This document shows positions 11,269 through 44,234 of a stretch of DNA of 64,000 nt, piece after piece (position 1 is the stretch's first letter; every line of letters begins with the position of its first letter). Source of the DNA: a virus (lineage: Duplodnaviria > Heunggongvirae > Uroviricota > Caudoviricetes); IMG/VR virus record IMGVR_UViG_3300026533_000003, positions 37,772 through 101,771 of that record. One strand, written 5' to 3'. The notes beneath the pieces were generated by a model, which worked only from the letters and a program-made list of their open reading frames with translations, had not been told where the DNA came from and did no database searches. The position numbers and the translations under genes were made by a program.

Positions 11269-12666
11269 TCATGCTAGCTCATCATCGTAGGTTAACTCTT
11301 CCACGGCTTCCTGGAAGTGTATATACTTACCACTTACTGTATAGGTAGAGTCGTCAGCACTGGATGCAAGGTCTGCTAGTTCCGTGAGTCTTTTCTCAGA
11401 TCCCTGACCTGTAATGAATCCTAGTTTACGTAGTTGATGAAGGCTTATTGAGTGGAACCCTCCTTCTGCGTGCTTGTGCATGTACTTGATGAATAGCTCA
11501 TAAGGCTCTTTATCTAGTTCTATTTCAAAGGCTTCAAGGTCTGGGCAGTACATCTCAGAGAAACGTATTGCTTGTATGAAGTGATGCTTCTCTATCGTTA
11601 AGTCTCCCATTAGTATTGCTAAAGCGCCTGATAGTTTTAACGTCTTCCATTGGAGGTGGCGTCGGTGCAGTTTATGCATTGGATGCTTTTGGGAGATAGT
11701 TTGTGCTAACCACTTGTTGTAGTTATTGTAGTTACTGAATAAGTCCTTGACTTCCTTAGAAGCCTTTAATGGAGCAGGGACCGTAGAATCTACTAGTGCT
11801 GTGAACCACGGAGTGTAGTCTGCCCTGGCTGCTTTAACGTTCTTCTCTTCTTGCCTATCATGCTCTAGTGATAGTTCAATAGAGCTGAATCGTAATAATT
11901 CTGGCTCCTCGTCTACAAAGGAGAAGAAAGACCTACGAGATAACTTAGTAGAGAACTCTTCCTTGAACTTGCGCTTTACTTTCTCATCTTCTATAATATT
12001 GGTAGGTGATCCAAACATTAATGCTGAGTAGGGAAGGTTCTCAATAGGGTCTACCTGGTTGGCATCATCTTTAACTATCTTAGCTGGGATCTCCCCAGAG
12101 TCGTAGCCGATTGCTAAGGCTACAATATTTTCAGATAGGTCAGCATTAGATACTAACTCAGATCCTATCTCATCTACATACATGTATCCTGCACCTAAGT
12201 TACCTGCTTCTAGTGCTGCTAGGTGCTTCATAGTTCCTGGTAAGGTAGATACAGCTGCTTTTAGATTGCGAGGCTTAGAATGGTACTTACGCCAGTCCCT
12301 CTCTTGCTTCCCATCGTTTACAGCTTCTTGAATGGCGAGGGCTTTGGCGTGTATTTCTCTATATTCGTTTATCTTCTTATAGCCTTTGGATAGGACTGAA
12401 GATACACTCTTAATTGATACGCCTTTACCTTCACCAGATCCACCTATTAGGAATGAGATCAGGTTTACAGGTATCTTATCTTCTTTCCATAGGATAGGCT
12501 TACGGAGGTGGCTTGCAAATACTACTAGTTCAGTTGCTGCTAGAAGTACTTTCATCTTTTTAGGGATGTTACCTGGTATTACTTTAGAGACATCTTCTAG
12601 GATTTGTGGGTACTCTTGCTTGAAGCACCCTTCTTTTTCTAGGGATTGTCTATACATTTCTAGCAT
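11269..12666 (-). CDS. P-loop NTPase, replicative helicase-like (putative)
   Basis: Walker-A-like 'GGSGEGKG' and Walker-B-like 'GYMYVDEIG'; 465 aa, in the replication block. Confidence 0.35.
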   Translation of the reverse strand: MLEMYRQSLEKEGCFKQEYPQILEDVSKVIPGNIPKKMKVLLAATELVVFASHLRKPILWKEDKIPVNLISFLIGGSGEGKGVSIKSVSSVLSKGYKKINEYREIHAKALAIQEAVNDGKQERDWRKYHSKPRNLKAAVSTLPGTMKHLAALEAGNLGAGYMYVDEIGSELVSNADLSENIVALAIGYDSGEIPAKIVKDDANQVDPIENLPYSALMFGSPTNIIEDEKVKRKFKEEFSTKLSRRSFFSFVDEEPELLRFSSIELSLEHDRQEEKNVKAARADYTPWFTALVDSTVPAPLKASKEVKDLFSNYNNYNKWLAQTISQKHPMHKLHRRHLQWKTLKLSGALAILMGDLTIEKHHFIQAIRFSEMYCPDLEAFEIELDKEPYELFIKYMHKHAEGGFHSISLHQLRKLGFITGQGSEKRLTELADLASSADDSTYTVSGKYIHFQEAVEELTYDDELA

Positions 12667-12892
12667 TGGACTCCTTTTGGTTATACCAGTTAAAGGCTCG
12701 TCTTACTACGTAGCCCCTTACTAGGGAGACTAAAGTAAAGACTGCCGCTATTGTTATGTTCTCTGTTGGGGCTAGTACTATGTGCCAGTAGGAGAATACT
12801 ATCGGCTGTACTACTAGGATACTTAATAGTAGGCCTAGTGCTAGGTTGGTAGAGGTCTCTATTAAGGACATCCTCTTAGATTGACTAGCCAT
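12650..12892 (-). CDS. small membrane protein
   Basis: Two predicted TM helices; 80 aa. Confidence 0.3.
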   Translation of the reverse strand: MASQSKRMSLIETSTNLALGLLLSILVVQPIVFSYWHIVLAPTENITIAAVFTLVSLVRGYVVRRAFNWYNQKESNARNV

Positions 12893-13841
12893 TAACTACT
12901 GGTGCTAGAAGGGATGCTCTCTCAGATTTAGATATCACACTTTTACGTTCACGAGAGTATGAGTTACAGTCGTTACAGCGGTATCGTTTAAATTGAGATA
13001 CGTTAGTAACGGAGTAACCGTCTGGCGATAGCGAAGTTGATCCACAAGTTGTACAGCGGTGAGACAGTGAGCCTGAAGTAGTTACTACTGAGGGGTGAGA
13101 TTTATCCCAACCACGTAGCTTTAAGTATAGCTCTTCCGTTACTAGAACGTCTTGGATGTTATAGTGCTTCATCTCTGCCCAAGCTTCCTCGTTGCCAGCC
13201 ATACATTCTTTCCATAGCTCGAAGCCATTGAATTTCTTATGGGCTGACTTTTGTGAGGTACATAGTGCACCAGTTAGGTACTCTAGGGTGTTGCGCTCGA
13301 ATGAGAAATACTTCTTAGCTATTAGCATAGTATCTACTACACGGTACGGAGATGGAGGAGTTAGCCCATTTAAGATGGCATAGGCGTTAATCTTTTTCAT
13401 ATCAAACTTAGCTGCGTTATGGCCTACTACTATATCGGCTTCGTCTACTAGCTCCATTATTTCCGCTGTTATTTTAGAGTCGTCCCCTGTTCTAGTTTCG
13501 AAGTAGAAGATTTCATCTGAGTGCAGCCACTTTGCAGCCACAGTCATCATGTATGAACGGTCACCTTCTAGGCGCATCGGTTGGCCTATGTTTTGCTGCC
13601 AAAGTCCCCAGTGGTATGACATCATTGGAGCATTTTCTATATCTAAAGTAAGGATTTTTAAAGTGTCTCCTTGTGATGCGCTTTGCACTTGCTTCTTTGA
13701 TAGCCTAGCACCTAGTGCTTGCTTTGACACTTTGTAGTGCTTAGCTATTGATGCTTTAGTCTCTCCGTTTTCTATACGAGCTACTATTGAGGTCCAATTA
13801 TCGTTTAGGATCTTTGTAGTTTTTTTATGTGTTTTTGCCAT
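12885..13841 (-). CDS. DEDDh 3'-5' exonuclease (DnaQ/RNase T-like) with N-terminal HTH and C-terminal Cys cluster
   Basis: Exo I 'ILTLDIENAP', Exo II 'VVGHNAAKFD', Exo III 'HYNIQDV'; HTH 'ASIAKHYKVSKQAL'; C-terminal CxxC..CxxC. Confidence 0.6.
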   Translation of the reverse strand: MAKTHKKTTKILNDNWTSIVARIENGETKASIAKHYKVSKQALGARLSKKQVQSASQGDTLKILTLDIENAPMMSYHWGLWQQNIGQPMRLEGDRSYMMTVAAKWLHSDEIFYFETRTGDDSKITAEIMELVDEADIVVGHNAAKFDMKKINAYAILNGLTPPSPYRVVDTMLIAKKYFSFERNTLEYLTGALCTSQKSAHKKFNGFELWKECMAGNEEAWAEMKHYNIQDVLVTEELYLKLRGWDKSHPSVVTTSGSLSHRCTTCGSTSLSPDGYSVTNVSQFKRYRCNDCNSYSRERKSVISKSERASLLAPVVNG

Positions 13842-14702: not shown

Positions 14703-15088
14703 AGTAGATTTCCTTGAAGGTATCTTTGTATATAAGAGCTGATAGTTTCATGTGGTAGGGGATTGCGGGTGATGCCATGAAGGCATAATATTTATTTGTG
14801 TTACAGTGGCCTTTCTCCGCAGGCATTGGCGGTAGCTTTATAAGGTCTTCTAGGGAAAGTACTGTTAAGTTTGCATTTATACTGTTATATAGACTTACGG
14901 TTCCTGGTAAATTTTCTCGGTAGAGTGCTGTGTAGGTAGTTATAGCAAATATAAAATTCTCTAGGTTGTTTACTCCGTAGCTAATTATTTTAGCCCTTTT
15001 ATTACTGCTTGCTTTTCTTTCTTAGTTGAGGCTCTTTGTAGCTCTTCCAGTCTTATTGGAAGGGTGAATGAGTTTAATGGCTCTCGCA

Positions 15089-15358
15089 TTAGATACCTCC
15101 TTGTAGTTTTAATAGGAACTTTACAGCGTTGTAATCTTCTGAGACTAGTATCTCTGTTTTAGCTATTACCATTTCTGACTGAGTTGGCTCACTAGCAGGA
15201 GTGTATGGTCTATGGGCTGCAGGAGTACTTGTAGTTATTCTGGTTGTTAATTCATGCCCATCTCTTATCCTCTTTCTATAAGCGTCTACTTGTAGGATGG
15301 TTGATACGAGGATTAGTACTTTAGTATCGTCAAAATGTCTTGTCAGTTCTATGAACAT
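15089..15358 (-). CDS. hypothetical protein
   Basis: 89-aa ORF. Confidence 0.25.
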   Translation of the reverse strand: MFIELTRHFDDTKVLILVSTILQVDAYRKRIRDGHELTTRITTSTPAAHRPYTPASEPTQSEMVIAKTEILVSEDYNAVKFLLKLQGGI

Positions 15359-15371
15359 TGTGGTTCCTTTA

Positions 15372-16166
15372 TTAGTGACAGTCTTGCCAGCTGTTACCTA
15401 CTAGGACTTCTCCAGTGTAGGTACACTTCATTCCCAAGTAGTCAGAGACTTTCTTATAGGTGGATTGAAGGGTGTCGGCTAAGACTTGTTGGTGTTTGAT
15501 TTTTATTATTAGATCCACTTCGTCGTAGATACATGCTTGTTGGATGTAGTCTTTGCCGTGAGGGAATCCTCTACGGGCCATTTCTTCTTGGTAGAATACT
15601 AGGTAGTGCTTCATTGCTTCAGCACCCATTCCTTGGAGTTGGGAGTTAAGGGTAGCATGAGCGTGACGTACAGGTACCCTGCGGCCTCCAAACATCGTTA
15701 CGTACCCGTTTGCCTTGCCTTCCTTAGAGATGTCCGTGATGAGCTCCTTAAGGCCTTCTGTTGAGGAGATTAGGTCTGCTTGTACTTTGGCACCAAATAG
15801 TGCTTGGCGTATTAGGTGGTCTGTGAATGGTACTAGGGCGTCTTTCTTGATGGGGTAGAACTCTTTGCCATCCATTTTTGTTACACGACGGTAAAGCTTC
15901 TTCTTCATTGCGTCGAATTGCTTGCCTGTGTAGTCTGTAAACGGTTTATTACCGAGGAGAGTGTATCCTGTAAGAGTTGGTGAAGAGCCGTAGAGGAACC
16001 CAAACCAGAGCGGTTTTGCATCCCCTCTAGAGATTCCACAAGCTTTGGCGTTAAGGGAGTGAAGGTCTGTCCCGTTAGCTTTGCTGCCAGATGCGATAAT
16101 GTCGTTAAGTCTTCCACCATCATAGGGGTAGAGCATTTCGGCGAGGTTAACGTTTTCTTGTCCAGT
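15372..16166 (-). CDS. DNA polymerase (family A, T7-like) polymerase domain, 3' exon / C-terminal segment
   Basis: Motif B 'RGDAKPLWFGFLYG' and motif C 'ACIYDEVDL'. The in-frame stop-free extension upstream of the tracked ATG encodes 'TGQENVNLAEML', which aligns to T7 'ASGLELRCLAHFM' (motif A helix). Confidence 0.8.
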   Translation of the reverse strand, partial: TGQENVNLAEMLYPYDGGRLNDIIASGSKANGTDLHSLNAKACGISRGDAKPLWFGFLYGSSPTLTGYTLLGNKPFTDYTGKQFDAMKKKLYRRVTKMDGKEFYPIKKDALVPFTDHLIRQALFGAKVQADLISSTEGLKELITDISKEGKANGYVTMFGGRRVPVRHAHATLNSQLQGMGAEAMKHYLVFYQEEMARRGFPHGKDYIQQACIYDEVDLIIKIKHQQVLADTLQSTYKKVSDYLGMKCTYTGEVLVGNSWQDCH

Positions 16167-17042
16167 CAGGAGAAGTCAGTACCGACAAAGACCCATTGTT
16201 CTTTGGTAGTATGACTTCTTAAATCCTCCTTGATTGTACTAGATAAAAGAGGGTTAGCTAGTAATTGGTTGTATTCTTGTTCTGTGAGTTTCATGTAGTT
16301 CCTTTACTCGTTTGATTACCTGGGCTGTACAGTCTTTTGTTCGTAGCTCTGTATCACCTCCGTGGGTAAGTACAGCAGGGCCTTTATATAGTAGGTCCTT
16401 AGTATCTTGCAATAGTAGACGCTCCAGGTCGAAAGCGTCTTCACCATGTAGGCAGTGCACTTCTAGCAGTATTGCTATTGTGTTGCCATCTTTAGTATCT
16501 TTGGCGTACCTTTCCCTTACCGTCTTCTTAGTTATGCCTATTTTGAACAGCGAATTATTTACTAGTACTAGGTAAAGTATTGCGGGTGCTCCCACGTACT
16601 TAGTGCGGCCCCATCCTTTTTTAGTGTTAGCACACTCAGGACATCCCTTACCTCGTAAGTGATTGTTAGGGGATATTAGGAAGTCACCATGAGATTTACA
16701 GGTCACTTTAGACTTTTCACAGGACTTGGTGAAGACAGTAGATTCGTAGGTGTAGAGATTCATGTGTGTAGCGCTAGCACGCAGGATGTATTCCGCTTCA
16801 CTTGTAATAGGAGAGGGCTTGCATGTAGGGCAGTGCCCAGCTCTTAGATGATTCTTCGGAGTAGTGGTAAAGTCTCCGTGTGTTGGGCATGTGACTGTAA
16901 TCTCGTTACCCCTACCTGTGTAGTTAACCTTAGCGTACGTATACTCACCATTATGGAAATCCGTTGCTCTCTCTGCGAAGTTGTCTTTGTTTAATTTCAT
17001 ACAGTATTATACAGCCAGCATACTTAAAGCTTGCTTATACAG
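16167..17042 (-). mobile_element. intervening sequence (putative group I intron) in the DNA polymerase gene, carrying a homing-endonuclease ORF
   Basis: The polymerase sequence resumes in frame on the far side. The proposed 5' exon ends in U (…GAU AGU) and the insertion ends in G (…CUCCUG). Boundaries are inferred by alignment to T7 gp5, not verified. Confidence 0.45.
16254..17000 (-). CDS. homing endonuclease, GIY-YIG-like (T5orf172-type) with duplicated N-terminal Zn-finger modules
   Basis: Two repeats 'TCPTHGDF..NHLRAGHCPTC' and 'TCKSHGDF..NHLRGKGCPEC'. C-terminal 'AILYLVLVNNSLFKIGITKKTVRERY' fits the GIY..YIG pattern. It sits exactly between the two polymerase segments. Confidence 0.6.
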   Translation of the reverse strand: MKLNKDNFAERATDFHNGEYTYAKVNYTGRGNEITVTCPTHGDFTTTPKNHLRAGHCPTCKPSPITSEAEYILRASATHMNLYTYESTVFTKSCEKSKVTCKSHGDFLISPNNHLRGKGCPECANTKKGWGRTKYVGAPAILYLVLVNNSLFKIGITKKTVRERYAKDTKDGNTIAILLEVHCLHGEDAFDLERLLLQDTKDLLYKGPAVLTHGGDTELRTKDCTAQVIKRVKELHETHRTRIQPITS

Positions 17043-17570
17043 ACTATCTGGGACGTAGTAGTAACAGGGAGCTGAGAATAGTTCTCTAAACTCTTTTTGG
17101 GCTGGTATTTGTGCAAGGTTTGGGCTTGAGCTTGTAAATCTTCCTGTAACTGTACCGCACGTATCAACTCTTCCGTGGATACACCTGGTAGCTTCATTGT
17201 AGTGGTTGATAAGTGATCCATCTGCCCCTCCTATTTGGGATTGGTCTTTGGTTACTTTTAGGTATCGCCTAAGCATCTGACCTGAGGGATGGGTCATATT
17301 CTCTAGAGAGTCTACATCTACCTTTACTCCTCCCTTTGGGGTGAAGTATGGGAATTGGTACCCTAGGTCGTGCTTCATCCATAGCTTTATATGAGCACGA
17401 GAACCAGGGTTGAAGGCTTCGTACTTAATGTTTTGGTAGGTACCTTCACGGTGTACCATTACTGTTCGCATTGGTTGGTCAAACCATTTGTAGTTGCTTG
17501 CTGCCGGCATACGGAACTTACCGTTTTTAAGTATCTTAGACCCCGGGATTGTGTAAGGCTTTAGTAGCAT
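17043..17570 (-). CDS. DNA polymerase (family A) polymerase domain, 5' exon / N-terminal segment
   Basis: 'KYEAFNPGSRAHIK' aligns to T7 'FNPSSRDHIQ'; 'GTVTGRFTSSSPNLAQIP' aligns to T7 'GAVTGRATHAFPNLAQIP'. The tracked ORF runs on to 17007 ('DSLYKQALSMLAV*'), which is interpreted as readthrough into the intron. Confidence 0.75.
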
Positions 17571-17844
17571 CTTTGCTCCTATTTATGTGATAGTTGGCCG
17601 CACTTTTCTTGTTGCTAAGGCTGTGCTTTGTTGCGTGTGTTAGTGTGGGTCTAATCTCTAGAGACATTACCTCTGAGATAAGGTCTATATAGAATAGGTT
17701 GATGTAAGACTTCTCTAGTGGGGGCTTACCCGTTGCTTCTCTTAGCATTTTTAGTTCAAGGGATAGTACTAGGCTCTCTGCCTCTGCGATAGAGGTGAGG
17801 GCTTTGATTTCTTGTAGGTAGATTGCTTTGTTAAAGGCATTCAC
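17536..17844 (-). CDS. small protein, MNDF/MNAF-N-terminus paralog family
   Basis: N-terminus 'MNAFNKAIYLQEIKAL' is shared with at least six other small ORFs in this window. Confidence 0.4.
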   Translation of the reverse strand: MNAFNKAIYLQEIKALTSIAEAESLVLSLELKMLREATGKPPLEKSYINLFYIDLISEVMSLEIRPTLTHATKHSLSNKKSAANYHINRSKDATKALHNPGV

Positions 17845-18625
17845 TTAATACCCTTTTGGTACGAGTCTCTACTGCGGTTAGTAGATCTTTTACTTGCTCT
17901 AATTGCTTGAATAGTGGTATCTCTAGTAAGGACTTGTCTTTTACTGTTGCTGCGTATTCGTAGCAGTTGTCGAGGATATCTTCTATTATAGTGTAGTGAA
18001 TCTTCTCTGGCATGTGGAGCTTTAAATACTCTATCTCTAAGACCTGTCGTGGCTGAGTTATTCCTGTAACTTTAGCGCTTTCATCTACTTCATCAGCACC
18101 TCTTAAGTAAGGTATTAAACCATTACCGTCCATTAGAGCGTTAATGTTTGCAAATCCTGCCGACTGCCTTAGCATATATCTCATTTTAAAGGGGTTAGTA
18201 TCCTCTCCGAATGATATTGCTAAGTTACGGATACTGTCTACTTGTAATGTTGAAGGGGCTAGTGTTGTGCAGAACTCAAATACATCTAGGTACTCTTCGC
18301 GGGTGGTTGTCTTATCAGCCATCATATGTGTCAGTAAGGTCTTGTGGTAACTTGTGATTTTAGTAGTAACCTCTCGTATAGGAGGTACAATGGATCTCCA
18401 CTCTGTGATGAGTCTGCTTACACACTTATAGATGTACTTACCTCCCATTATACCCTCCTTTTTATATGTAGATGGTAACAAGTTAGTATATTTACGTATT
18501 AGTTCATTCTGCTTCTTGGCTGTTTTGCAAGTAGCTATCTCTTCAATATCTATTTTGTATTGAAATGCATTCATTCGTCTAGTCTCCATATATTGTCTGG
18601 ACCGCATGAGAAGTATTCGTTCCAT
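17831..18625 (-). CDS. protein of the MNDF/MNAF family (longer member; likely starts at internal 'MNAFQYKIDIEEIA')
   Basis: Internal Met followed by the family N-terminal motif. No polymerase motifs detected. Confidence 0.35.
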   Translation of the reverse strand: MERILLMRSRQYMETRRMNAFQYKIDIEEIATCKTAKKQNELIRKYTNLLPSTYKKEGIMGGKYIYKCVSRLITEWRSIVPPIREVTTKITSYHKTLLTHMMADKTTTREEYLDVFEFCTTLAPSTLQVDSIRNLAISFGEDTNPFKMRYMLRQSAGFANINALMDGNGLIPYLRGADEVDESAKVTGITQPRQVLEIEYLKLHMPEKIHYTIIEDILDNCYEYAATVKDKSLLEIPLFKQLEQVKDLLTAVETRTKRVLSECL

Positions 18626-18813
18626 TTCATTGACGCGCGAAACTTACCTGTCATTCTCTTTGCGGCTTTCCTTTTGGCTAGCATGTATTCTGCTGCTTGC
18701 ATATCTATGCTATTATTTAGTATATATTTAGCTACTGCCACCGACTCTAGTAGATCTAGTTTTCTAGTGGATTTTAGAAGTGGTTGTATTGTTGCTATTT
18801 CAAAGTCATTCAT
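18571..18813 (-). CDS. small protein, MNDF family
   Basis: N-terminus 'MNDFEIATIQPLL'. Confidence 0.35.
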   Translation of the reverse strand: MNDFEIATIQPLLKSTRKLDLLESVAVAKYILNNSIDMQAAEYMLAKRKAAKRMTGKFRASMKWNEYFSCGPDNIWRLDE

Positions 18814-18822
18814 TAGTGGTCC

Positions 18823-20319
18823 TTATACCATTAAGATATCAGTTGTGCCTTTCACTTTCATAGGGTTGTTCTCACAACATACGAAGAAGGTTGATAGGTT
18901 CCTTAGACGAGGGTGTTTAGCCCACTCTTGAGGAATGTCTGAGTAGTTATCAGAGTAAGATAGGAAGATAGTTTTGTTAAGGTCCTTAACGTTGTTATCT
19001 ATCCAGTCGAATACATCTGAGTGGCTAGTGCCTCCTACTACGAATCTAGTTGCTAAGGCTTCTTTGAATTGCTTGTTTTCTGCAATATCATAGTCACTTT
19101 CTAATACGAATTCCTTAACTATACGGGTATCGTGGATAAGCACTGTTAGTTTAGTTATCTGCTTAGATACATCTTCCATTAGGTATAGGAGACGCTGCAA
19201 GGCCTCTGTGGATACTGAGCCTGAGTGATCTACTGATAGTACTAGTTCTAGTTTGGTATCGAAGAATTGCTTCTTAGGTGCCTTATAGATACGACGGTAG
19301 GTATTGTTAAGGTTAGCCCAGTTTGTGCTGTAGTCGTGAGTCATGTAATAGACTTGGCGTTTGAATGAGGCCTTTATCTTCTTGAACCAACCTGTCTCTA
19401 CTTTTATAGATCCGAATAGGGAGTTCATAAGTTTCCCGGCTGTTGTGCCTTTAGTGTTTGTTTGGATTACATCTTGGATTGCTTCGGATAGGTCTGACAT
19501 TGCTGTGTCCAGGTCGTCTACTGAGGTGTCGGTTGCTTTAGTTTTAGCACTTTTACCTCCGTCTTCGTCAGTAGCGTCCCCCTCGTTACCACCGGGATTG
19601 GTTGGTTGAGTAGTTTCTTTACCGTCGAACTCTACTTTGGACATACAGTTAGATACTTGAGTAACTTTAGGTTGCTCGGCACCTTCTTTTAGTAGTTTAA
19701 GGATCTCTATATCGGATAGTTGGTCTTTATGGTATTGGGCATTATATAGGCCTATAGGCTCTATGGTACTCCAGTGAGACTTCAGCTGAGATGCCATAAA
19801 GAGATCTTTTATGCTGTAGTTGATTGCGTAGTCCTCTGCGATATTGACTACTTGGTGAGGGTCTTGTAGGCCATCAGCTATTCGTAACATCATAGTGTTG
19901 TAGCCGCTAGTTATATGCTTACGGATAATATGCTGTAGCTCATGCATATATACAAAGGCAAAGAATACACCATGCCGCTCCATGTGACGCGCTATAGTTT
20001 TTAGTTCGGTTTCATTATGGTATAGGAATTTAAAGTGTACCTCCACATGGTTACCCATCTCTACATACGCTCCAAAGTAGTTCATAAATGTTTTTAACTC
20101 TTTGTCTAGTTTTGGAAGTGGGGCGTTAGTTTGCTCAATTGTTACCTTTACTGGCAGCTTAAGGAATAGTCCTGTACTTAGACCAGCTGTCTTAGTCTTA
20201 CCTAGTAGCAGGTTAGTGTTCTTGGCAATTTCTTTATATACAAAGTCTTCTGCTGTTTTTATAAATTCTGGTATTGTCATATTGGTTCCTTTAATAATTT
20301 GGTAGTGTAGTCTTTTCAA
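18823..20319 (-). CDS. vWA-domain protein with HExxH metallopeptidase-like motif (partner of the MoxR-like ATPase; CobT/ViaA-like)
   Basis: C-terminal MIDAS motif 'LVLSVDHSGSV' (DxSxS); 'MHELQH' zincin-like motif; acidic low-complexity linker; 498 aa. Confidence 0.65.
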   Translation of the reverse strand: MKRLHYQIIKGTNMTIPEFIKTAEDFVYKEIAKNTNLLLGKTKTAGLSTGLFLKLPVKVTIEQTNAPLPKLDKELKTFMNYFGAYVEMGNHVEVHFKFLYHNETELKTIARHMERHGVFFAFVYMHELQHIIRKHITSGYNTMMLRIADGLQDPHQVVNIAEDYAINYSIKDLFMASQLKSHWSTIEPIGLYNAQYHKDQLSDIEILKLLKEGAEQPKVTQVSNCMSKVEFDGKETTQPTNPGGNEGDATDEDGGKSAKTKATDTSVDDLDTAMSDLSEAIQDVIQTNTKGTTAGKLMNSLFGSIKVETGWFKKIKASFKRQVYYMTHDYSTNWANLNNTYRRIYKAPKKQFFDTKLELVLSVDHSGSVSTEALQRLLYLMEDVSKQITKLTVLIHDTRIVKEFVLESDYDIAENKQFKEALATRFVVGGTSHSDVFDWIDNNVKDLNKTIFLSYSDNYSDIPQEWAKHPRLRNLSTFFVCCENNPMKVKGTTDILMV

Positions 20320-20491
20320 GCAGAGAATCCCATACTATATTGAATACCTCATCTTTATCTTTTGAAGCTACTAGGTGTGGTAATAGCACTCTAGTGGACG
20401 GTCTTAGTGTCTTTATATAGGCTGCTTTGCTGTCTAGTGAGATGCAATTATATATAGCTTTCTTTATTATAGCTTTTTCAAAGTCTGTCAT
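20291..20491 (-). CDS. small protein, MNDF family
   Basis: N-terminus 'MTDFEKAIIKKAIY'; ATGA start/stop overlap with the next member. Confidence 0.4.
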   Translation of the reverse strand: MTDFEKAIIKKAIYNCISLDSKAAYIKTLRPSTRVLLPHLVASKDKDEVFNIVWDSLLEKTTLPNY

Positions 20492-20724
20492 TAGAGGTAG
20501 CCTTTCATAGAGCTTATCAGTTTGAATACTTGCTCTGCGGCATTGGCTGAGATTGATGCTTCTGTTAAGGTGTCCCTTATCTTTACAGCATACTCTTTCT
20601 TCTTCTCAAACGGTAGGTTGGATGCAGCTATATTATGCATTAGATTAGTTAGTTGTTGTGCATCGACAGGTGGTTGCAGGTTCTCTACAGCTTTAATTGC
20701 GATGTTTATTGTAAAGTCGTTCAT
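20491..20724 (-). CDS. small protein, MNDF family
   Basis: N-terminus 'MNDFTINIAIKAVE'. Confidence 0.4.
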   Translation of the reverse strand: MNDFTINIAIKAVENLQPPVDAQQLTNLMHNIAASNLPFEKKKEYAVKIRDTLTEASISANAAEQVFKLISSMKGYL

Positions 20725-20735
20725 ATGGTAGTCCC

Positions 20736-20936
20736 TTAGTATCTTAGCTTTTTTATGAATAACACTTCTGCTGGAGATCTTGCCTCTTTTGCTACCATTA
20801 TCTTAAGGTGTAGCATCTTAGCAAGGCGAGAATTTATATCTATTACTTCACAGAACTTGTCTCGTTGCTCTTGCGTTAGATAAATTTCTTTATTTAGAAT
20901 TGCTTCTTTCATTATTGCGTATGAGAAGTTATCCAT
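20736..20936 (-). CDS. small protein, MNDF family
   Basis: N-terminus 'MDNFSYAIMKEAIL'. Confidence 0.4.
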   Translation of the reverse strand: MDNFSYAIMKEAILNKEIYLTQEQRDKFCEVIDINSRLAKMLHLKIMVAKEARSPAEVLFIKKLRY

Positions 20937-21204
20937 TAGCGTCTATCCTTAATTGTAGCCATCGAAAGAACACTGAGGTATTAGGTCCCCATTCCCAAGG
21001 TTTAGTTACCTTTGATAGGTATTCGGTGACTACTACATCTGCAGGAGTGTACTTCTGGGTCTTTACCAGTGGCACTAAGAGGTCTTTACATAAGTCCTCT
21101 AGAGTATCACTAGGGATGGGTGTACCTCGTTCTATGTTACGCATAGCTATTTCTTTACTGAATTTATTCATATAGGTACTCCTGTACTGCTTTGATGCTG
21201 TCAA
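20929..21204 (-). CDS. small protein, MNDF family (probable internal start 'MNKFSKEIAMRNI')
   Basis: Family motif 11 codons into the ORF. Confidence 0.35.
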   Translation of the reverse strand: MTASKQYRSTYMNKFSKEIAMRNIERGTPIPSDTLEDLCKDLLVPLVKTQKYTPADVVVTEYLSKVTKPWEWGPNTSVFFRWLQLRIDANG

Positions 21205-21427
21205 GTAGGTCGGGGTCAGTAGCGGTTTGTTGGGCTGCTGCTAGGCGAAATAGTGCTTGGGTTTTAGGCATTGTCCTTACCTCTCCAAGGATCTGTGAGA
21301 AGAGTGGATGCTGTAATGCGCTACTTGCTTCTAGAAGGTCTGCGTGGCGTAGACGGGAGTTCTCCTCCGTAATTTCGTATGAGGTCTTTGGCTGAGTGGT
21401 ACTTGGGGATATCGTTAGGTGACGCAT
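21164..21427 (-). CDS. hypothetical protein
   Basis: 87-aa ORF; overlaps 21321..21575 in another frame, so one of the two may not be real. Confidence 0.2.
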   Translation of the reverse strand: MRHLTISPSTTQPKTSYEITEENSRLRHADLLEASSALQHPLFSQILGEVRTMPKTQALFRLAAAQQTATDPDLLDSIKAVQEYLYE

Positions 21428-21575
21428 CTGCTTTCTCTCTTTCAGTTAGTTTATTTAAATCTTTACCGAGTTGCAGAAGGGTATCCACAGAGCCCATAGC
21501 TGCGTACCTAGCCGTTAATAGGACTCGTTGGTGTATTGGGTTATGGAGATGAAATTGTTTGCTGAGGGGCTGCAT
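21321..21575 (-). CDS. hypothetical protein
   Basis: 84-aa ORF. Confidence 0.25.
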   Translation of the reverse strand: MQPLSKQFHLHNPIHQRVLLTARYAAMGSVDTLLQLGKDLNKLTEREKADASPNDIPKYHSAKDLIRNYGGELPSTPRRPSRSK

Positions 21576-21803
21576 AGAGGTCCTTTACGTAGTTTGATAT
21601 TGCTTCTGCTGCTACGTTATATATAGATGCTGACACAGGACCACTAATGGCTGTGCGTAGATAGTCTACATCTAAGGCTGCTTCGAATAGGATAGAGGAT
21701 TTGCTGAGGCCGCTATATCTTCTAAGTATTAGAACGTGCTGTTCTGCTGAATTAGCATAGATAAGAGTTGGGGTACTTGTGGTAGGCTGCTCATAGCCAT
21801 TAC

Positions 21804-22802
21804 TTAGTGAATATACTCTGATGCTATTTCGAATAGCTTTGCATGCTCTTTGAAGCTTAGCGTTCCTAATAGTTCTTTATCTTCTTTCTTGAGCTTCTTA
21901 AGCATTTCTGCTGGTGGTTCTTTATCTACCATTTGTAGTAGGATTGCTTCTAGTCCTACAGAGATTGGCTTACCTTTTTCGTAGTTTAGGAATGCTGTGA
22001 ACATTTCTCCCACAATAAAGCCTATGAAGTTAGATGAGCTAATGTTATTATCGATTAACTGCATTACGTACTTAGCATCGTCGATAGTCTCAACGTAGTT
22101 AATAATGTAGGCATAGAGGATTTGGTCTAATGGCTTAAGGTTGGCAATATCCATCTGCTTCTTAGCAGCTACTATACTTGTAAAGTCAATAGCCTCTATG
22201 TAGGCGATATGTTTAGATAGTTCTGCTGCTGCTGCTTTAGATACCTTTTGTTTAGCTAGGAGAGTTGTATTTTCTTGCAAGAAACTACGGTCGTATAGTT
22301 CGAACTCATTTGCTAAGTGAGTCCAAGAGCGTGGAGTACCGAATTGTTCTATTTCAGTGGACTCGTCTTCTTGGCAATACGATGCATGTGTTCGTAAGAA
22401 TGAGCTGATGTAGAAGTGTAGTTGCTTACCGAAGTTCTCAAACCAGTAGTCGAAGTCGAAGTTTACTGGTAACATACCCATGCGGTCTTTAATTGGGGAA
22501 TCTACTCCTGAGAACCCTGCTTCTTCTGAGTCGTTCATTGCACCCATAATGGCTACTTTCTCGTGTAGACGAAATGAGCCTAGTTTACGTTCTCCTAAGA
22601 GCCCGTAGAGGTAGGGAGCTACTGCCATGTTTACACGGTGAAGATCGTCGATGAATAGGATACAACCATTCTTGCCCTCTTCAATTGCAATACGGTTAGC
22701 TGTTTCTATGATTTGAGGTACTGACCATTTAGTAGCCATTGAGTTAACTGTGCCTGTGACTGAGTACTGGTCCATGTGGTGTGCAGGGATGAAGTCTGGA
22801 AT
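21804..22802 (-). CDS. MoxR/CobS-like AAA+ ATPase, 3' exon (Walker B to C-terminus)
   Basis: 'GCILFIDDLHRVNMAVAPYLYGLLGERKLG' is the MoxR-type Walker B / sensor region; Walker A is absent from this ORF. The in-frame stop-free upstream extension 'IPDFIPAHH' runs back to 22802. Confidence 0.7.
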   Translation of the reverse strand: MPDFIPAHHMDQYSVTGTVNSMATKWSVPQIIETANRIAIEEGKNGCILFIDDLHRVNMAVAPYLYGLLGERKLGSFRLHEKVAIMGAMNDSEEAGFSGVDSPIKDRMGMLPVNFDFDYWFENFGKQLHFYISSFLRTHASYCQEDESTEIEQFGTPRSWTHLANEFELYDRSFLQENTTLLAKQKVSKAAAAELSKHIAYIEAIDFTSIVAAKKQMDIANLKPLDQILYAYIINYVETIDDAKYVMQLIDNNISSSNFIGFIVGEMFTAFLNYEKGKPISVGLEAILLQMVDKEPPAEMLKKLKKEDKELLGTLSFKEHAKLFEIASEYIH

Positions 22803-23888
22803 CGCTTATATTCAGTAGTTATCGTTAGTAACTACCCGCACCATTACGTGCTGCTACACCTCTCGGTGTAGGCTAGACTATATCTTCATCTTTATGTCTT
22901 AACTTTCTTGAACAGGGGAGGCAATATTGAATTGCACCTTCTGCTGATCTAACCATCGTTTGTGTCCACGGACTACTTATTTCGTTAGAACAATTATTAC
23001 AGGTGTATACGCCGAACCACTTGAATTTAAGCTTGTCGCCTATTAGTAGCTGTTTGTATTGCACACCTATTATTGTTCTTCCCCCGATATCTTCGCCGAT
23101 GTGCGTCATGTACTGCTCGAACATATTAGCCTGAACTGTGTGAGTTTTAGTCTTTGCAGACTGAGCTCTTACATTTAGATTCTGGTTATCTGCCGAGTGT
23201 TGCATGTTCTCTGCGTGTGTTACCCATTCTAGATTCTCTACAGTATTATTAGTACCGTCTTTATCTTTGTGGTTAACAAATGGCTTGTTATTAGGGTTAG
23301 GAATAAATGCTTCTGCCACTAGTCTATGCATGTGTACTGTATAATTATTGCCGTTATTAGATAACGAAGCTTTAACGTAAGTTGTATGCATTTGCTTGTG
23401 GTAGCTGCCTGAGCGTACCTTAGTACCGCTCTTAGTCGTGATACGTAAGTTGCCTTTGTCTGATACCTCGTAACGAGTACCGTACTTAGGACTTACTGGT
23501 TTGAATGTTTCTTGATTTTCCATTATACTTCCTTAAATTAGATAAGTAAGTATACCGAAAAATTTCTTAAAGTTAAATAAAGATGTCCCCCATTTCCACT
23601 CACTTGAGTGTACGAGCACAATGCTCTAGTCGTTGAACCTTCTCCTGCACGGAGCTTGGCTGCTGATTGCCTCTATCATTTACTTTTCTAACCGTCAACA
23701 TCTGCTTTCGCGATGCTTGTGGTGTAAATGCTTAACAAGGGTTCCCAGCAATTAAAGGGATGCTAACTACGTATCACTACGTAGAAGGGCTGTAACGTTC
23801 AGCTATTTAGTCTTATCAATAACACTACTATCATTTGTTTATTCTCATCATAGTGTTTTAGGGATACTGTTAATAGCTCACGTCGTTA
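22803..23888 (-). mobile_element. putative group I intron (~1.09 kb) interrupting the MoxR-like ATPase gene, carrying an HNH homing endonuclease
   Basis: The 5' exon ends …GGU|UAA and the 3' end is …AAGCG|AUU. A ~360-nt ORF-free, GC-richer structured segment (23524-23885) lies upstream of the HEG. A GNRA-capped hairpin 'CCUACACC GAGA GGUGUAGC' lies downstream of the HEG. Confidence 0.5.
22873..23523 (-). CDS. HNH homing endonuclease (intron-encoded)
   Basis: 'VNHKDKDGTNNTVENLEWVTHAENMQHS' HNH motif; C-terminal Cys cluster 'CNNCSNE...CLPCSRK'. Confidence 0.75.
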   Translation of the reverse strand: MENQETFKPVSPKYGTRYEVSDKGNLRITTKSGTKVRSGSYHKQMHTTYVKASLSNNGNNYTVHMHRLVAEAFIPNPNNKPFVNHKDKDGTNNTVENLEWVTHAENMQHSADNQNLNVRAQSAKTKTHTVQANMFEQYMTHIGEDIGGRTIIGVQYKQLLIGDKLKFKWFGVYTCNNCSNEISSPWTQTMVRSAEGAIQYCLPCSRKLRHKDEDIV

Positions 23889-24086
23889 ACCAGAAAGTTC
23901 TTCCGTACTTACTTCCGGGATCGATACTTGCACAACACCCATGTTTAAGTCTTTCGCTATCTTATATAGAGTTTGTGTTTTCCCGATACCAGGTTTACCA
24001 GCGATAGTTATACCTCCTCCGATGTCTGCTCCAGAAAGTTGGCCCTCGATGTTGGTGCGTAAAATTTTTATTATTGTGTTGTTCAT
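23886..24086 (-). CDS. MoxR/CobS-like AAA+ ATPase, 5' exon (Walker A)
   Basis: 'IAGKPGIGKTQTLYKIAKDL' is a Walker A P-loop. 66 aa ending at a stop, then the intron-like sequence. Overlaps the upstream gene by 4 nt. Confidence 0.7.
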   Translation of the reverse strand: MNNTIIKILRTNIEGQLSGADIGGGITIAGKPGIGKTQTLYKIAKDLNMGVVQVSIPEVSTEELSG

Positions 24087-25132
24087 TGGTTGTTTCCTTT
24101 TAATATTGTTTTAAGTAGTTCATTTGTGTATGTTGTTGCTGTTTGCATGTCTTGATAGCTTTCAGTAAAGGCTTCTAGGGTTGCTGTGCTTTTGTCGCTG
24201 CGGTTGTTATCTAGTTCCTCTACTAGTTGATCTATTGCGATGTCATAGTAGGGGTGGTGACTTTTAGTAGCTAAGGCTGAGAGGATTACCAGTTTATCTA
24301 TTGCGTAGATTACGTCGTAGTTACTCATTGTAGATGGTTTAGCTATCCCGGTTACGTACTTGTGAAGACAGTTAGCTGGAAGGTTTAAGCCAGATATTCT
24401 TAGAGATACTCCTAGGGACCGGGCTGCTAAAAAGAAGAAGTGTTCAGAGAAATGTATGTGCTTGCTTATTGACTTATCAGTATCTGAGGCTAAGTCTCTT
24501 ACAGTTCTAACCATATCTATAGCTCTCTCTTCACGTTTTAAGTAGGAGTCTACGTTTGCGGAATTTATTAGTCTATCTACTAGGGCTTTAGATTTGGTCT
24601 TAGCGTTATCTAGTAGCAGTTTACGGTAGCCTTCTTGAGCTATTACTTCAGACTCTTCACTAGGAGTAGGCAGGTTATCTAAGTAACGAATTACATCCTT
24701 ACCTGATAGCTTTTTATGGGACTCTAAATGCTTCTTGAATATTGCTAGAGAGAATTGGTTAAGAGATAGCTCTTTGCTATTTTCGTTGAAGTTAGCCGAT
24801 AGTTGCATCTCCCTTGCCTTAGTATAACCCTTGCTTGGTAGTATTTCTTTAAGTAGTTCCTTAGGGATTTGGTTTATTATAGTCTCGATAGTGCGGTCTT
24901 TAGTCATATAAATGTTAGCGGCTTTCTGCGCCATTGACCTTTGCTCCCAGCCAAAGCTAGAATAATTGTATCTACCGCTACTTAATCCTGCAAAATTCAC
25001 TAGGAGGAAAGCTTCTAATGGTGTTGCCTTTACTAGCATTGATACACATGGGTCAACACTACCACTTAATGCTGCTGTTAAGTCTTCTTTGAATCTTTGG
25101 TCGTTGAGTTTACTTAGTATTTCTTGTTGCAT
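24083..25132 (-). CDS. hypothetical protein (first gene of the MoxR/vWA operon)
   Basis: 349 aa, translationally coupled to the ATPase 5' exon. Confidence 0.3.
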   Translation of the reverse strand: MQQEILSKLNDQRFKEDLTAALSGSVDPCVSMLVKATPLEAFLLVNFAGLSSGRYNYSSFGWEQRSMAQKAANIYMTKDRTIETIINQIPKELLKEILPSKGYTKAREMQLSANFNENSKELSLNQFSLAIFKKHLESHKKLSGKDVIRYLDNLPTPSEESEVIAQEGYRKLLLDNAKTKSKALVDRLINSANVDSYLKREERAIDMVRTVRDLASDTDKSISKHIHFSEHFFFLAARSLGVSLRISGLNLPANCLHKYVTGIAKPSTMSNYDVIYAIDKLVILSALATKSHHPYYDIAIDQLVEELDNNRSDKSTATLEAFTESYQDMQTATTYTNELLKTILKGNNQ

Positions 25133-25380
25133 ATTTATCCTTTAATATATTAGTTATTATCGTTATATTAGTTGGTAATCACTAATATATTAGTTAAAGC
25201 GGTGGTTATCTACGCCACCTAGCCTTATGCTTTGCTGAGCCATCATTTGCAGCTACTGCAACCGATACAAGTAGCGATATCACCTGTAGATAAGTCAGGT
25301 CTACGATTATAGAGCGGGAGCTCTTGTCCAGGTAAGTTGCCATCACTATTTATAAGAGGACTCGTACCTCAACCCTAAGA

Positions 25381-25659
25381 CTAGGCCTTTTTGTAAGTTT
25401 TACCCTTATAAATTATAGTACCGTTTGATTTAGGGATGGGAGTGTTATGAATCTTCTTAGCTTTCATTTTGGCTTGGTACCTTGCTAGTTGCACTGGTTG
25501 AGGGTTTGCAGTTCCTGCGTCTCTTTTCCACTTACCTAGAGTAGATACTCCGATGTTAAACTCAGCAGCAATTCTAGCTACTGGTGTTGACTTTGTGCGT
25601 TTTACTGCTGCTGTCACTAAGGCTTTTGGGTAAGCCATACCATTTCTAATTGTTCTCAT
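25381..25659 (-). CDS. HTH DNA-binding protein (IS3-OrfA-like helix-turn-helix)
   Basis: 'VARIAAEFNIGVSTLGKWKR'. Confidence 0.4.
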   Translation of the reverse strand: MRTIRNGMAYPKALVTAAVKRTKSTPVARIAAEFNIGVSTLGKWKRDAGTANPQPVQLARYQAKMKAKKIHNTPIPKSNGTIIYKGKTYKKA

Positions 25660-25668
25660 ATTTATCCT

Positions 25669-26463
25669 TTACCATACAGGTATATAGTTGTTGTTAGGAA
25701 GATACTTTCGTACCTTACTGGGTTTCTTATAGGTCTTCTCTTGTCCGTCTTTTAACCATTTAGGTTTAAAGATTAATGAGAGTTGACGAGCTAGTTCTGT
25801 TTTCTCAGTAAGCAACGCTGTGTTTAATGCCCTGGCTTTCACTATGTCTAAATGAAAACCAAGTGCTGTTTGCTCTGCTATTATACTTGCCGCTTTGTGC
25901 TCAATATCTACCACTGCCTCTATAGGAAAGTTAGACTTAGCTAATAGGAATAGTAGTAATCTGGAAGTTAGGCTCACATCCTGGTTACAGTATATGGCCA
26001 TCTCTCTGTTGAGGTGTGAGAAGTCTTCGTAATCTATCTTGAAGTCTCCCATACGTTGTCCAAATGCTTTGGCTGAGTAGGAGCCGAATAGTTTCTTATC
26101 CACGCCAAGGTCACCATCCATTGCAAACAGGTCATCTTTAGAGAAGACTATTTTCGCAAGGATTAAAGTGTCGAGAGGAGTGGATACTATGTCGGTACCT
26201 GCTAGTTTCTGCATCATTGGTACGTCATACCCCATGATGTTATGACCTGCGTTGTAGTCACAAGTGTTTATAAGTGTTACAGCTTGCATTATGCTACCGT
26301 GTGAGTAAGGTACCCAGTGTATGGTGAATATCTTAGCAGGTTCGATTATAACTTCGTCTCTTACTATCTCCACCGACACACAGAATATCTTTGTACTGGG
26401 TATCCAGTCTGCTTCGATATCCCAAACGGCAATGGTTTTTCCTTTAAGCCATTCAGGTATCAT
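25669..26463 (-). CDS. DEDDy 3'-5' exonuclease (DNA polymerase I proofreading-domain homolog, encoded as a separate gene)
   Basis: Exo I 'IAVWDIEADW', Exo II 'NIMGYDVPMM', Exo III 'YCNQDVSLT'; 264 aa. Roughly 8 kb separates it from the polymerase-domain gene. Confidence 0.7.
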   Translation of the reverse strand: MIPEWLKGKTIAVWDIEADWIPSTKIFCVSVEIVRDEVIIEPAKIFTIHWVPYSHGSIMQAVTLINTCDYNAGHNIMGYDVPMMQKLAGTDIVSTPLDTLILAKIVFSKDDLFAMDGDLGVDKKLFGSYSAKAFGQRMGDFKIDYEDFSHLNREMAIYCNQDVSLTSRLLLFLLAKSNFPIEAVVDIEHKAASIIAEQTALGFHLDIVKARALNTALLTEKTELARQLSLIFKPKWLKDGQEKTYKKPSKVRKYLPNNNYIPVW

Positions 26464-26465
26464 TA

Positions 26466-26819
26466 CTAGTCCTCTGAGTTAAGTGCTGTGGAGATTGTTT
26501 TAAGTATTGTTAGGTACTTATCACGTTCCATGCATGCTGCAGTGTTTGATGCTATCTCAGCCTCAAGCTTAGTACCAATATCGGCAACCTTTTCACCAAG
26601 TGATGTGATGGTCTCTTTAGCTCTTACAAGCTCTTCAGCAGTCTCTGAGCTAGTGTCATCCACTTGTTGTACAGGGTTAGCCTCATCGTATAGCTCGATG
26701 ATATCCTTAGCTTTAAAGTATGCAATAATTAGGATGTCATATAATAGGGACTTGTCTTCTGTGTCTATGTTTTCCTCTATCTCTACGATATCGGCTTTTA
26801 ACTGGTCTATTTTGTTCAT
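26466..26819 (-). CDS. hypothetical acidic protein
   Basis: 117-aa ORF. Confidence 0.25.
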   Translation of the reverse strand: MNKIDQLKADIVEIEENIDTEDKSLLYDILIIAYFKAKDIIELYDEANPVQQVDDTSSETAEELVRAKETITSLGEKVADIGTKLEAEIASNTAACMERDKYLTILKTISTALNSED

Positions 26820-26831
26820 TTAGAATTCCTT

Positions 26832-27035
26832 TTAAGATTGGGAGTTATTTTGCTCTGTTTTTATAGCGGCTATCATTGCGGTAAGGAGTGCCTTTTTAGT
26901 CGAGTGGTACCCTGTGTACTTATTCCCAGGGCCTTTAGTACTACATCGCACTACGCCGTCTGAATGGATGTAATTTCCCTTACCATCGCCTGCCCACCAT
27001 CCTGACGAGTTCTTCTCTATATTTACTATTTCCAT
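26832..27035 (-). CDS. hypothetical protein
   Basis: 67-aa ORF. Confidence 0.25.
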   Translation of the reverse strand: MEIVNIEKNSSGWWAGDGKGNYIHSDGVVRCSTKGPGNKYTGYHSTKKALLTAMIAAIKTEQNNSQS

Positions 27036-44217: not shown

Positions 44218-44234
44218 TTGTTCCTCCTACGGAA

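Follow-up and report, generated by a model that had tools for sequence, protein, structure and literature searches.

In S-SBP1-like cyanophages, gene fission has divided a T7-like PolA replicase into separate exonuclease and polymerase genes (Czernecki et al. 2023, PMC10201439), and in T4 the bypass cassette gene 39/mobA/gene 60 places a homing endonuclease within an essential replication gene (Bonocora et al. 2011, as described in Manning & Atkins 2022, 10.1101/2022.08.31.505936). According to the description given there, the free-standing endonuclease MobE splits the NrdA gene of phage Aeh1, tails on the pieces being needed for the reassembled function, and E. coli shows a short 'stop-hopping' in which 9 nt code for a single amino acid (Weiss et al. 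1987, cited in the same work). The locus compared here with these systems is the replicative DNA polymerase gene of a tailed virus (Caudoviricetes; IMG/VR record IMGVR_UViG_3300026533_000003), of which positions 37,772 to 101,771 were analysed; this stretch of 64,000 nt, numbered from its first letter, is called the window. Group I introns and inteins are also found in phage DNA polymerase genes, e.g. SPO1 gene 31.

This phage of about 102 kb has a T7-like family-A replicase made from three polypeptides, not two. A previous interpretation of the letters of the window (the sequence-only reading) had recognised an exonuclease gene standing apart from a polymerase gene; this split is real but gives a partial picture, and it is a variant of a kind already published. 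In our best reading, to which we give slightly better than an even chance, the three-piece polymerase also contains a mobile cassette like MobA/gene 60, which would depend on a short ribosomal hop. Every gene between 14 and 50 kb of the window is on the minus strand. The elements of the polymerase, including open reading frames (ORFs), are:

25669..26463, minus strand: piece 1, 264 amino acids (aa), 3'-5' exonuclease domain and, as far as the thumb loop, the first ~75 residues of the polymerase domain; PHROG 17 'DNA polymerase'
17576..17580, minus strand: AGGAG ribosome-binding site, read from the sequence, 5 nt upstream of the pol-N ATG
17007..17570, minus strand: pol-N ORF (piece 2 including its tail)
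17067..17570, minus strand: polymerase part of piece 2, 168 aa, running from the thumb's second half via TGRFTSSSPNLAQIP to ...FRELFSAP; Pfam DNA_pol_A, 52 bits
17007..17066, minus strand: cassette-derived C-terminal extension of piece 2, CYYYVPDSLYKQALSMLAV (19 codons) and stop, a conserved tail
16254..17000, minus strand: free-standing homing-endonuclease gene, 248 aa; PHROG 681 'endonuclease', E 4e-40
16166..16294, minus strand: start of piece 3, a 42-codon ORF with the motif A Asp, its own ATG and AAGGA 5 nt upstream
16171..16219, minus strand: RNA hairpin of 18 bp pairing leader codons with motif A codons; -18.6 kcal/mol, z = -3.3 (60-nt segment, dinucleotide shuffles)
16164..16168, minus strand: coding gap TGACT, in-frame stop TGA then C; identical in L024
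15372..16163, minus strand: remainder of piece 3, 263 aa and stop, with GQENVNLAE (motif A Glu), motif B DAKPLWFGFLYG, motif C IYDEVD and ...CH; T7 gp5 592-704

Joined in order, the pieces of the window (264+168+12+263 aa = 707 aa) can be aligned from one end to the other with a fused relative of 692 aa, with 324 identities, no segment missing and none overlapping or duplicated. Together with the alignment to T7 gp5, this agrees with the proposal of the sequence-only reading that the proteins cover non-overlapping parts of one enzyme. The hallmarks of T7-like family-A polymerases are present, namely motif A GTDFS/GQE (broken by the 5-nt gap), motifs B and C and the C-terminus ...QDCH, but they are distributed over three sets of ORFs with separate starts and stops and not on a single polypeptide. 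The stand-alone exonuclease ORF is real and contains Exo I VWDIEAD, Exo II HNIMGYDVP and Exo III YCNQDV, which line up with T7 gp5 and with the fused relative. Its earlier description as an exonuclease domain is correct for these DEDDy motifs but incomplete: it aligns with T7 gp5 over residues ~58-272, reaching at least 272, and therefore also carries about the first 75 residues of the polymerase domain. Family-A sequence does run from 17570 to 15372, but it does not begin near T7 gp5 residue 250, as had been suggested, since the cut falls at ~271-322. Nor is this interval a single polymerase gene; it consists of four elements, which are pol-N, the endonuclease gene, the 42-codon ORF and the remainder after the 5-nt frame break.

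The break between pieces 1 and 2 is inside the thumb loop and not between the exonuclease and polymerase domains, where it had been placed before. Piece 1 ends in ...KVRKYLPNNNYIPVW with a stop codon after it, and piece 2, which begins MLLKPYTIPGSKILKNGKF..., aligns with T7 gp5 residues 325-444 and, in the fused protein of L014, with residues 268-415. In more distant relatives of ~50% identity (L014, L015/L021, L036 and L037) a single 692-aa ORF spans the termini at which the two window pieces meet, reading ...YIPDENYQYLT followed by AIAYHPFQYTILKNGK (junction in full, ...KPRRTKQYIPDENYQYLT-AIAYHPFQYTILKNGKIRF...). This bears out the view that both ORFs belong to one replicase; because these sister lineages encode exonuclease and polymerase in one ORF, with the exonuclease piece contiguous with pol-N, the exonuclease piece is not an unrelated enzyme of the RNase D/WRN type. 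Between the fused protein and T7 gp5, the junction falls between the confidently aligned residues ~271 and ~322, which in the T7 structure is the insert at the thumb tip that binds thioredoxin. Among 5.8 billion proteins searched there were 43 close homologues of the exonuclease piece (48-100% identity, 264-283 aa), all of them stand-alone, and the distant L009 has the same exonuclease gene end, W and stop, with one 323-aa gene only before pol-N. Thus the fission is old, having arisen before much of the clade, and the intergenic space appears to have grown since then. Piece 2 is translated independently, since it has its own AGGAG-N5-ATG. As the first step of the history proposed here, an ancient fission would have occurred in the surface loop at the thumb tip, at the position of the T7 thioredoxin-binding insert; pieces 1 and 2, each with its own start and stop, would presumably reassemble non-covalently, and 1 to more than 12 cargo genes would later have filled the space between them. 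An intein was rejected at either split. Pieces 1 and 2 end in stop codons and the junction residues are lacking: the cassette tail opens with C, T, I or V in different lineages, and no HN motif precedes the point of resumption.

This first split is shared with S-SBP1. In both cases a T7-like PolA has its proofreading and polymerase parts in separate genes with their own stop and start, reassembly is expected (PMC10201439), and the window has relatives in which the two parts are fused. However, the S-SBP1 genes are adjacent and overlapping and arose by a 1-nt frameshift, whereas those of the window are 8.1 kb apart with unrelated genes between them. The cut in the window is in the loop of the thumb and thioredoxin-binding domain (TBD), leaving part of the polymerase domain on piece 1, while for S-SBP1 PolA a shortened TBD is reported with no cut coordinate (PMC10201439). 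The split had been called uncommon. The cultured-phage matches inspected at the top of the list are indeed fused, but the split alone is less novel than was implied, because an exonuclease/polymerase split of T7-like PolA is already in the literature (PMC10201439). The nearest cultured phages have 27-34% protein identity, and the two that were inspected have fused polymerases; megablast of 15000..27000 against phages gave no match.

The second split is due to a cassette inserted eight residues ahead of the catalytic Asp of motif A. In L010, L011, L012, L017 and L018 an uninterrupted polymerase ORF of ~450 aa reads AP-KGWSFIGTDFSGQENV across this point (in full, ...FRELFSAP-KGWSFIGTDFSGQENVNLAEMLY...). 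Ten cassette lineages were compared (window, L024, L006, L027, L028, L060, L041, L029, L023 and L039/40), and the insertion point after AP, the tail and the leader are common to all of them. The tail pattern x[YM]Yx[IV]xxx[LI]Y is kept in 10/10 cassette lineages examined and is missing from cassette-free genes. The 42-codon ORF, MKLTEQEYNQLLANPLLSSTIKEDLRSHTTKEQWVFVGTDFS and stop, consists of the leader MKLTEQEYNQLLANPLLSSTIKEDLRSHTTKEQ, then WVFVGTDFS, then TGA, and its ATG (16294) lies within the 3' end of the endonuclease gene. In nine lineages the leader is conserved at the protein level as MKxT[DE]xQYxx[LI]Lx[ND]PxxPxxLxKELxNKAxxExW. The endonuclease combines zinc-finger/DUF723-like repeats with a T5orf172 (GIY-YIG-like) domain, the Pfam matches being weak. 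Homologues of 50-93% identity occupy the same site in L024, L006 and L060, and between the window and L024 this gene shows 41 synonymous and 18 non-synonymous codon differences. The endonuclease has been lost from L027, L028 and L041, and in L028 the tail is joined to its last residues, a deletion scar. The cassette is independent of the first split, since it is found in L023 and L039, where exonuclease and pol-N are fused. Window and L024 diverge by 9% in the cassette and by 17% in pol-N, which is consistent with lateral spread of the cassette. It is neither an intron nor an intein in our proposal, whose second step would be the insertion, after the fission, of this cassette built around the T5orf172/DUF723 homing endonuclease; two ORFs with added tail and leader would result, as with MobA in T4 topoisomerase and MobE in Aeh1 NrdA. 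A group I intron was rejected as the interruption: neither 16140..17070 nor the cassettes of L020, L023, L024, L027, L028, L029, L039 and L041 gave an Rfam group I intron match (E<=1), although the same searches detected adjoining introns at 34-96 bits, and the cassette has stop codons and its own start; introns were found instead in MoxR and in motifs A and B of relatives.

Motif A itself is interrupted by a short coding gap. In the window, GAC TTC TCC (DFS) is followed by TGACT and then, in another frame, by GGA CAA GAA (GQE). A metagenome scan yielded only 11 loci. The gaps found in the cassette lineages are:

Window and L024: last codon UCC, gap TGACT, next codon GGA
L023: last codon UCC, gap TAACT, next codon GAU
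L027: last codon ACU, gap TAACT, next codon GAU
L006: last codon ACU, gap TAAACA, next codon GAU
L028: last codon ACU, gap TAGCG, next codon GAC
L060: last codon ACU, gap TAGCA, next codon GAC
L041: last codon ACU, gap TAGCT, next codon GAC
L029: last codon CAA, gap TGACCGA, next codon GAG

The gap lengths in these eight lineages are 5, 5, 5, 5, 5, 5, 6 and 7 nt, at three positions within motif A (after GT, after DFS and after GQ). Every gap (8/8) opens with TGA, TAA or TAG right after the last normal codon, and C comes next in 7/8. A stop codon followed by C is a weak termination context. Removal of the gap gives back the ancestral protein in 8/8 lineages, and no gap is present in eleven cassette-free lineages, where DFSGQE is read uninterrupted. 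Both flanks of the gap are under purifying selection, with 59 synonymous against 13 non-synonymous codon differences in pol-N, 49 against 7 in pol-C compared with L016, and 28 against 8 in the 55 codons after the gap compared with L006. Sequencing error is ruled out because L024, whose flanks diverge by 9-17%, has the same 5-nt gap and the same 27 flanking nt; assembly error is also rejected, as the L006 sequence was assembled independently by JGI and Logan and the gap recurs in eight lineages. A suppressor tRNA or altered genetic code was discarded as well: the only tRNAs of the window are tRNA-Arg(CCT) and tRNA-Gln(TTG), each of the three stop codons is in use, and the frame is shifted by most gaps. 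Some recoding event is very probably required for piece 3.

The gap is associated with an RNA hairpin just upstream of it. On its 3' side the window hairpin ends with the first base of UCC, the take-off codon. All nine cassette loci have such hairpins, of 16-19 bp, with the 3' base at the take-off codon or no more than 3 nt from it. In all nine, leader codons (NKA..., RSHTT... in the window) pair with motif A codons (WSFVG..., GTDF in the window), and the hairpin position tracks the gap in the classes with gaps after GT, DFS and GQ. For 60-nt segments ending at the stop, z ranges from -3.1 to -4.8 in the nine cassette loci and from -0.4 to +1.4 in four cassette-free controls, treated equally with dinucleotide-preserving shuffles. 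Compensatory changes are seen; one pair, for example, is C-G in four sequences but U-A in two. When IMG/VR was scanned with the 5' arm as a pattern, 18 loci came up, but only 2 of them were genuine and neither was new. A further feature of the leader was observed. Its K-E codons are always AAG GAG, never AAA GAA, in all cassette loci, in a genome of 41% GC. This gives an invariant AAGGAG resembling a Shine-Dalgarno (SD) motif at the 5' base of the hairpin (16225..16231 in the window), which can pair with the take-off region (GGAG/CUCC in the window).

A short forward hop is proposed because the locus closely parallels the MobA/gene 60 element (10.1101/2022.08.31.505936). In this third step, the cassette would bring an insertion of 5-7 nt, stop codon first, into the coding sequence of motif A. 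The ribosome would pause with the weak stop (usually followed by C) in its A site, the upstream hairpin would re-zip behind it, and the peptidyl-tRNA would land 5 to 7 nt downstream, restoring exactly the ancestral ...GTDFSGQENV.... The product would span the gap as ...WVFVGTDFSGQENVNLAEMLYPYDGGR, without extra residues, and the junction peptide would be EQWVFVGTDFSGQENVNLAEMLYPYDGGR. Pairing of the exiting mRNA has been described as a driver of forward bypassing (10.1101/2024.12.09.627546). The landing triplet is the same as the take-off codon in L027 (ACU/ACU) and synonymous in L006 (ACU/ACA); in the other six lineages 2 or 3 of the 3 positions can pair at landing, with 2/3 in window/L024, L023, L028 and L060. 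By analogy with MobA, the insertion probably shields the genome that carries it from its own endonuclease.

Several observations weigh against a hop. Take-off and landing by the same tRNA would be possible in 2/8 lineages only, and UCC to ACU in the window is a mismatch at the first position, while in gene 60-type elements both codons always use the same tRNA (10.1101/2022.08.31.505936). The T4 stem-loop holds the take-off codon in its 5' arm, whereas here that codon is found at the 3' base of a hairpin lying upstream. A standard tool applied to 81 nt gives z = -1.38 for the window hairpin, short of significance. L039/L040 retain the hairpin without a short gap and have a group I intron one codon away, between DFSG and QEN, so the hairpin is not strictly tied to the gap. 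The lineages are partly related, and counts such as 8/8 overstate their independence, at least three gap positions being independent. The Rfam group I model misses some phage introns. The window shows 64 of ~102 kb, and a second polymerase could be encoded elsewhere. The hop is, moreover, deduced from sequences. Taking these points together, we consider a ribosome hop specifically to be somewhat favoured.

Conventional recoding, an unlikely but the best surviving alternative, would read the 5-nt gaps by a -1 frameshift, the 6-nt gap by readthrough and the 7-nt gap by a +1 frameshift, leaving two extra residues in motif A (DFS-LT-GQE in the window). This would fit the gap lengths, all 6 +/- 1 nt and thus two codons give or take one base, as well as the mismatched take-off and landing codons in 6/8 lineages and the -1 frame, which is open just upstream in several of them. 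The +1 frameshift site of prfB is CUU UGA C, which the L029 site CAA UGA C resembles, and the weak stop with C is common to this site and the polA gaps. However, three different mechanisms would be needed for one homologous element, and a slippery heptamer X XXY YYZ is present at no site. After a -1 slip the tRNA-Thr on ACU would face CAC with 1/3 pairs, and a hairpin re-forming behind the ribosome favours forward, not backward, movement. Two-residue insertions would also have to be accepted at three places within the most conserved catalytic motif.

Removal at the RNA level, by an unrecognised ribozyme or by an endonuclease with a phage RNA ligase or RtcB, would take out the 5-7 nt, or the cassette and gap, and leave translation standard. 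The polymerase family is rich in group I introns, including those between DFSG and QEN in L039 and at the L029 gap position in L009; an RNA ligase is encoded in the window and RtcB in relatives, and the hairpin could serve as a processing signal. Nevertheless we find this improbable, as known splicing systems never excise 5-7 nt and no Rfam intron was found in the cassette loci by searches that detected the neighbouring ones. In L028 and L041 a ribozyme would not fit, since tail and leader ORFs abut or overlap. The leader starts from an SD and ATG of its own and shows conservation at the protein level. A stop as the first gap codon in 8/8 lineages is a translational, not a splicing, signature.

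That the gap simply inactivates the polymerase, the phage replicating with another one, is suggested by the in-frame stop within motif A and by the ~38 kb of genome outside the window, but is more doubtful still: selection is strongly purifying on both sides of the gap, the architecture persists in at least eight diverged lineages, the gap and its 27 flanking nt do not vary between phages 9-17% diverged, and the 64-kb window contains no further polA, a related 102-kb IMG/VR contig having a single polA locus. Least probable of all is termination followed by restart, with motif A divided between a 39-44-aa peptide and a fourth polypeptide; the folded hairpin would bring the AAGGAG at its 5' base next to the gap, as folding likewise brings an SD motif near the start of T4 gene 38, and L028 has a downstream-frame ATG six codons ahead of the Asp, but the other lineages have UUA, CUA, AAU or UAA after the stop and no ATG, GTG or TTG in the downstream frame, the catalytic Asp would begin a product without a start codon in the class with gaps after GT, and the cut point would vary between lineages. 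Reinitiation was rejected for this lack of start codons.

Returning to the hop over a mobile insertion, the likeness to MobA/gene 60 covers most of the architecture. In both, a homing endonuclease gene within an essential replication gene splits the ORF in two without an intron or intein, a C-terminal tail and an N-terminal leader are conserved, a non-coding gap that breaks the frame begins with a stop ~40 codons into the second ORF, RNA structure is found at the site, and the endonuclease is progressively lost while the gap is kept. The differences concern the host gene and endonuclease (Topo2L and MobA family there, polA and T5orf172/DUF723 of PHROG 681 here) and the gap, which has 20-50 nt in MobA elements (10.1101/2022.08.31.505936) and 5-7 nt here. 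The gap of the window type contains no mini-SD, unlike T4 gene 60, and in the polA cassette its position moves between lineages, unlike MobA/gene 60. MobE/NrdA has no coding gap or recoding. ACU UAA ACA of L006 is the exact hop-over-a-stop pattern of E. coli stop-hopping; compared with stop-hopping and prfB, where known hops are low-efficiency or synthetic, the hop would here be the sole route to an essential enzyme. Like the introns and inteins of phage polymerases, the cassette targets a conserved motif, and relatives bear group I introns in both motif A and motif B, as well as an intein after TGRxxS; unlike introns, it has no Rfam-detectable ribozyme core and carries stop codons and its own start codon.

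Other mobile elements were found in the same genes, with at least four distinct sites within one polymerase domain of ~450 aa. Group I introns without ORFs occur in motif B, between PLWFG and LYGSS (Rfam 34-96 bits), in L006/L020 (~11697..12190), L027 (1027..1300), L019, L026 and L039 (4333..4561), and the window polymerase is without one. Intein-like inserts starting with Cys (CVPLDYKI... or CVPVDYMI...) lie between TGRxxS and S.NLxQIP in L039 (~2400..2780) and P0059. In L009 (10546..12900) an endonuclease-containing insertion is located between DLANI and EIR, the codon position of the 7-nt gap of L029. The same locus has an insertion with Endonuclease VII in motif B, four tRNA genes directly after the polymerase and an ORF with a reverse-transcriptase domain upstream of the exonuclease gene.

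The exonuclease ORF (26463..25669) and the polymerase sequence starting at 17570 are separated by 8,098 nt, so the spacing of about 8 kb given by the sequence-only reading, with MoxR/vWA genes between, was right. The features of this block, and a second exonuclease beyond the polymerase, are:

17571..25668, minus strand: intervening block, 8.1 kb, more than 12 ORFs
18823..20319, minus strand: vWA-like gene (DUF2201), within the block
12885..13841, minus strand: second DEDD exonuclease, 318 aa; PHROG 403 'DNA polymerase exonuclease subunit', E 7e-97; Pfam RNase_H_2

The block holds a small helix-turn-helix ORF, a 349-aa ORF, the MoxR-type AAA gene, small ORFs, the vWA-like gene and a 264-aa ORF. 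In close relatives the order is exonuclease, variable cargo, a conserved ORF of 334-349 aa, MoxR, vWA-like gene and then polymerase, and the distance between exonuclease and polymerase exceeds 10 kb in some. Block content varies among relatives (RlaP, PolyA_pol, RtcB, Metallophos, Apyc1). The cargo hot spot of L001, L003, L004, L005 and L007 contains RtcB, an RlaP nucleotidyltransferase, a PolyA_pol/CCA-type enzyme, a metallophosphatase and an anti-Pycsar Apyc1-like lactamase, and in the window the small helix-turn-helix ORF (25381..25659) and the 349-aa ORF stand where relatives carry other cargo. The MoxR-type AAA ATPase gene (21804..24086, minus strand) is interrupted by a group I intron of ~1.08 kb (Rfam 57.6 bits at 23810..23480, plus a 3' part at 23028..22854) that carries an HNH/NUMOD4 endonuclease ORF (23523..22873); exon 1 is 24086..23889 and exon 2 begins near 22805. 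MoxR is uninterrupted in L005 and L007 (396-397 aa), and L001/L006 have an insertion at the same site with no endonuclease ORF called.

The second DEDD exonuclease is outside the split polymerase, gives a weak tblastn match to a fused polymerase and is itself fused to no polymerase, so that no exonuclease-polymerase fusion was found there either. Its gene lies 1.5 kb downstream of the polymerase and encodes a Cys-rich C-terminal tail; L010-L012 have a similar gene 2-3 kb downstream of pol. At 43459..45303 (minus strand), N4-like RNA polymerase II sequence extends across three consecutive ORFs (270, 87 and 252 aa). As the N4 enzyme has two subunits, this suggests another extra split.

To our knowledge, natural programmed translational bypass in phages and bacteria has essentially one example, T4 gene 60 and its homologues, all of them one gene. 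A 2022 survey of gene 60-type elements reported no similar bypassing elsewhere in phages (10.1101/2022.08.31.505936). We see about equal grounds for and against regarding the polA cassette as a second, independent family of mobile endonuclease with programmed bypass, the first outside T4-like topoisomerase genes, located in motif A of a replicative polymerase; its micro-gaps of 5-7 nt would be hopped at a weak stop, driven by an upstream hairpin and without strict codon match, the gap being movable and the hairpin co-evolving with it. If so, an unrelated second cassette, with a shorter gap, three positions and about ten natural variants, would provide a compact recoding system of ~90 nt, in which the minimal needs of a hop, mRNA re-folding behind the ribosome as a forward drive and the co-evolution of endonuclease and recoding signal could be tested. 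Apart from bypass, the locus indicates that a T7-type polymerase tolerates breaks of its backbone in the thumb loop and just ahead of motif A, which is useful for split-polymerase engineering. It is also a warning for annotation, since ORFs called 'exonuclease only' and 'truncated polymerase' that lie many kilobases apart may be one enzyme.

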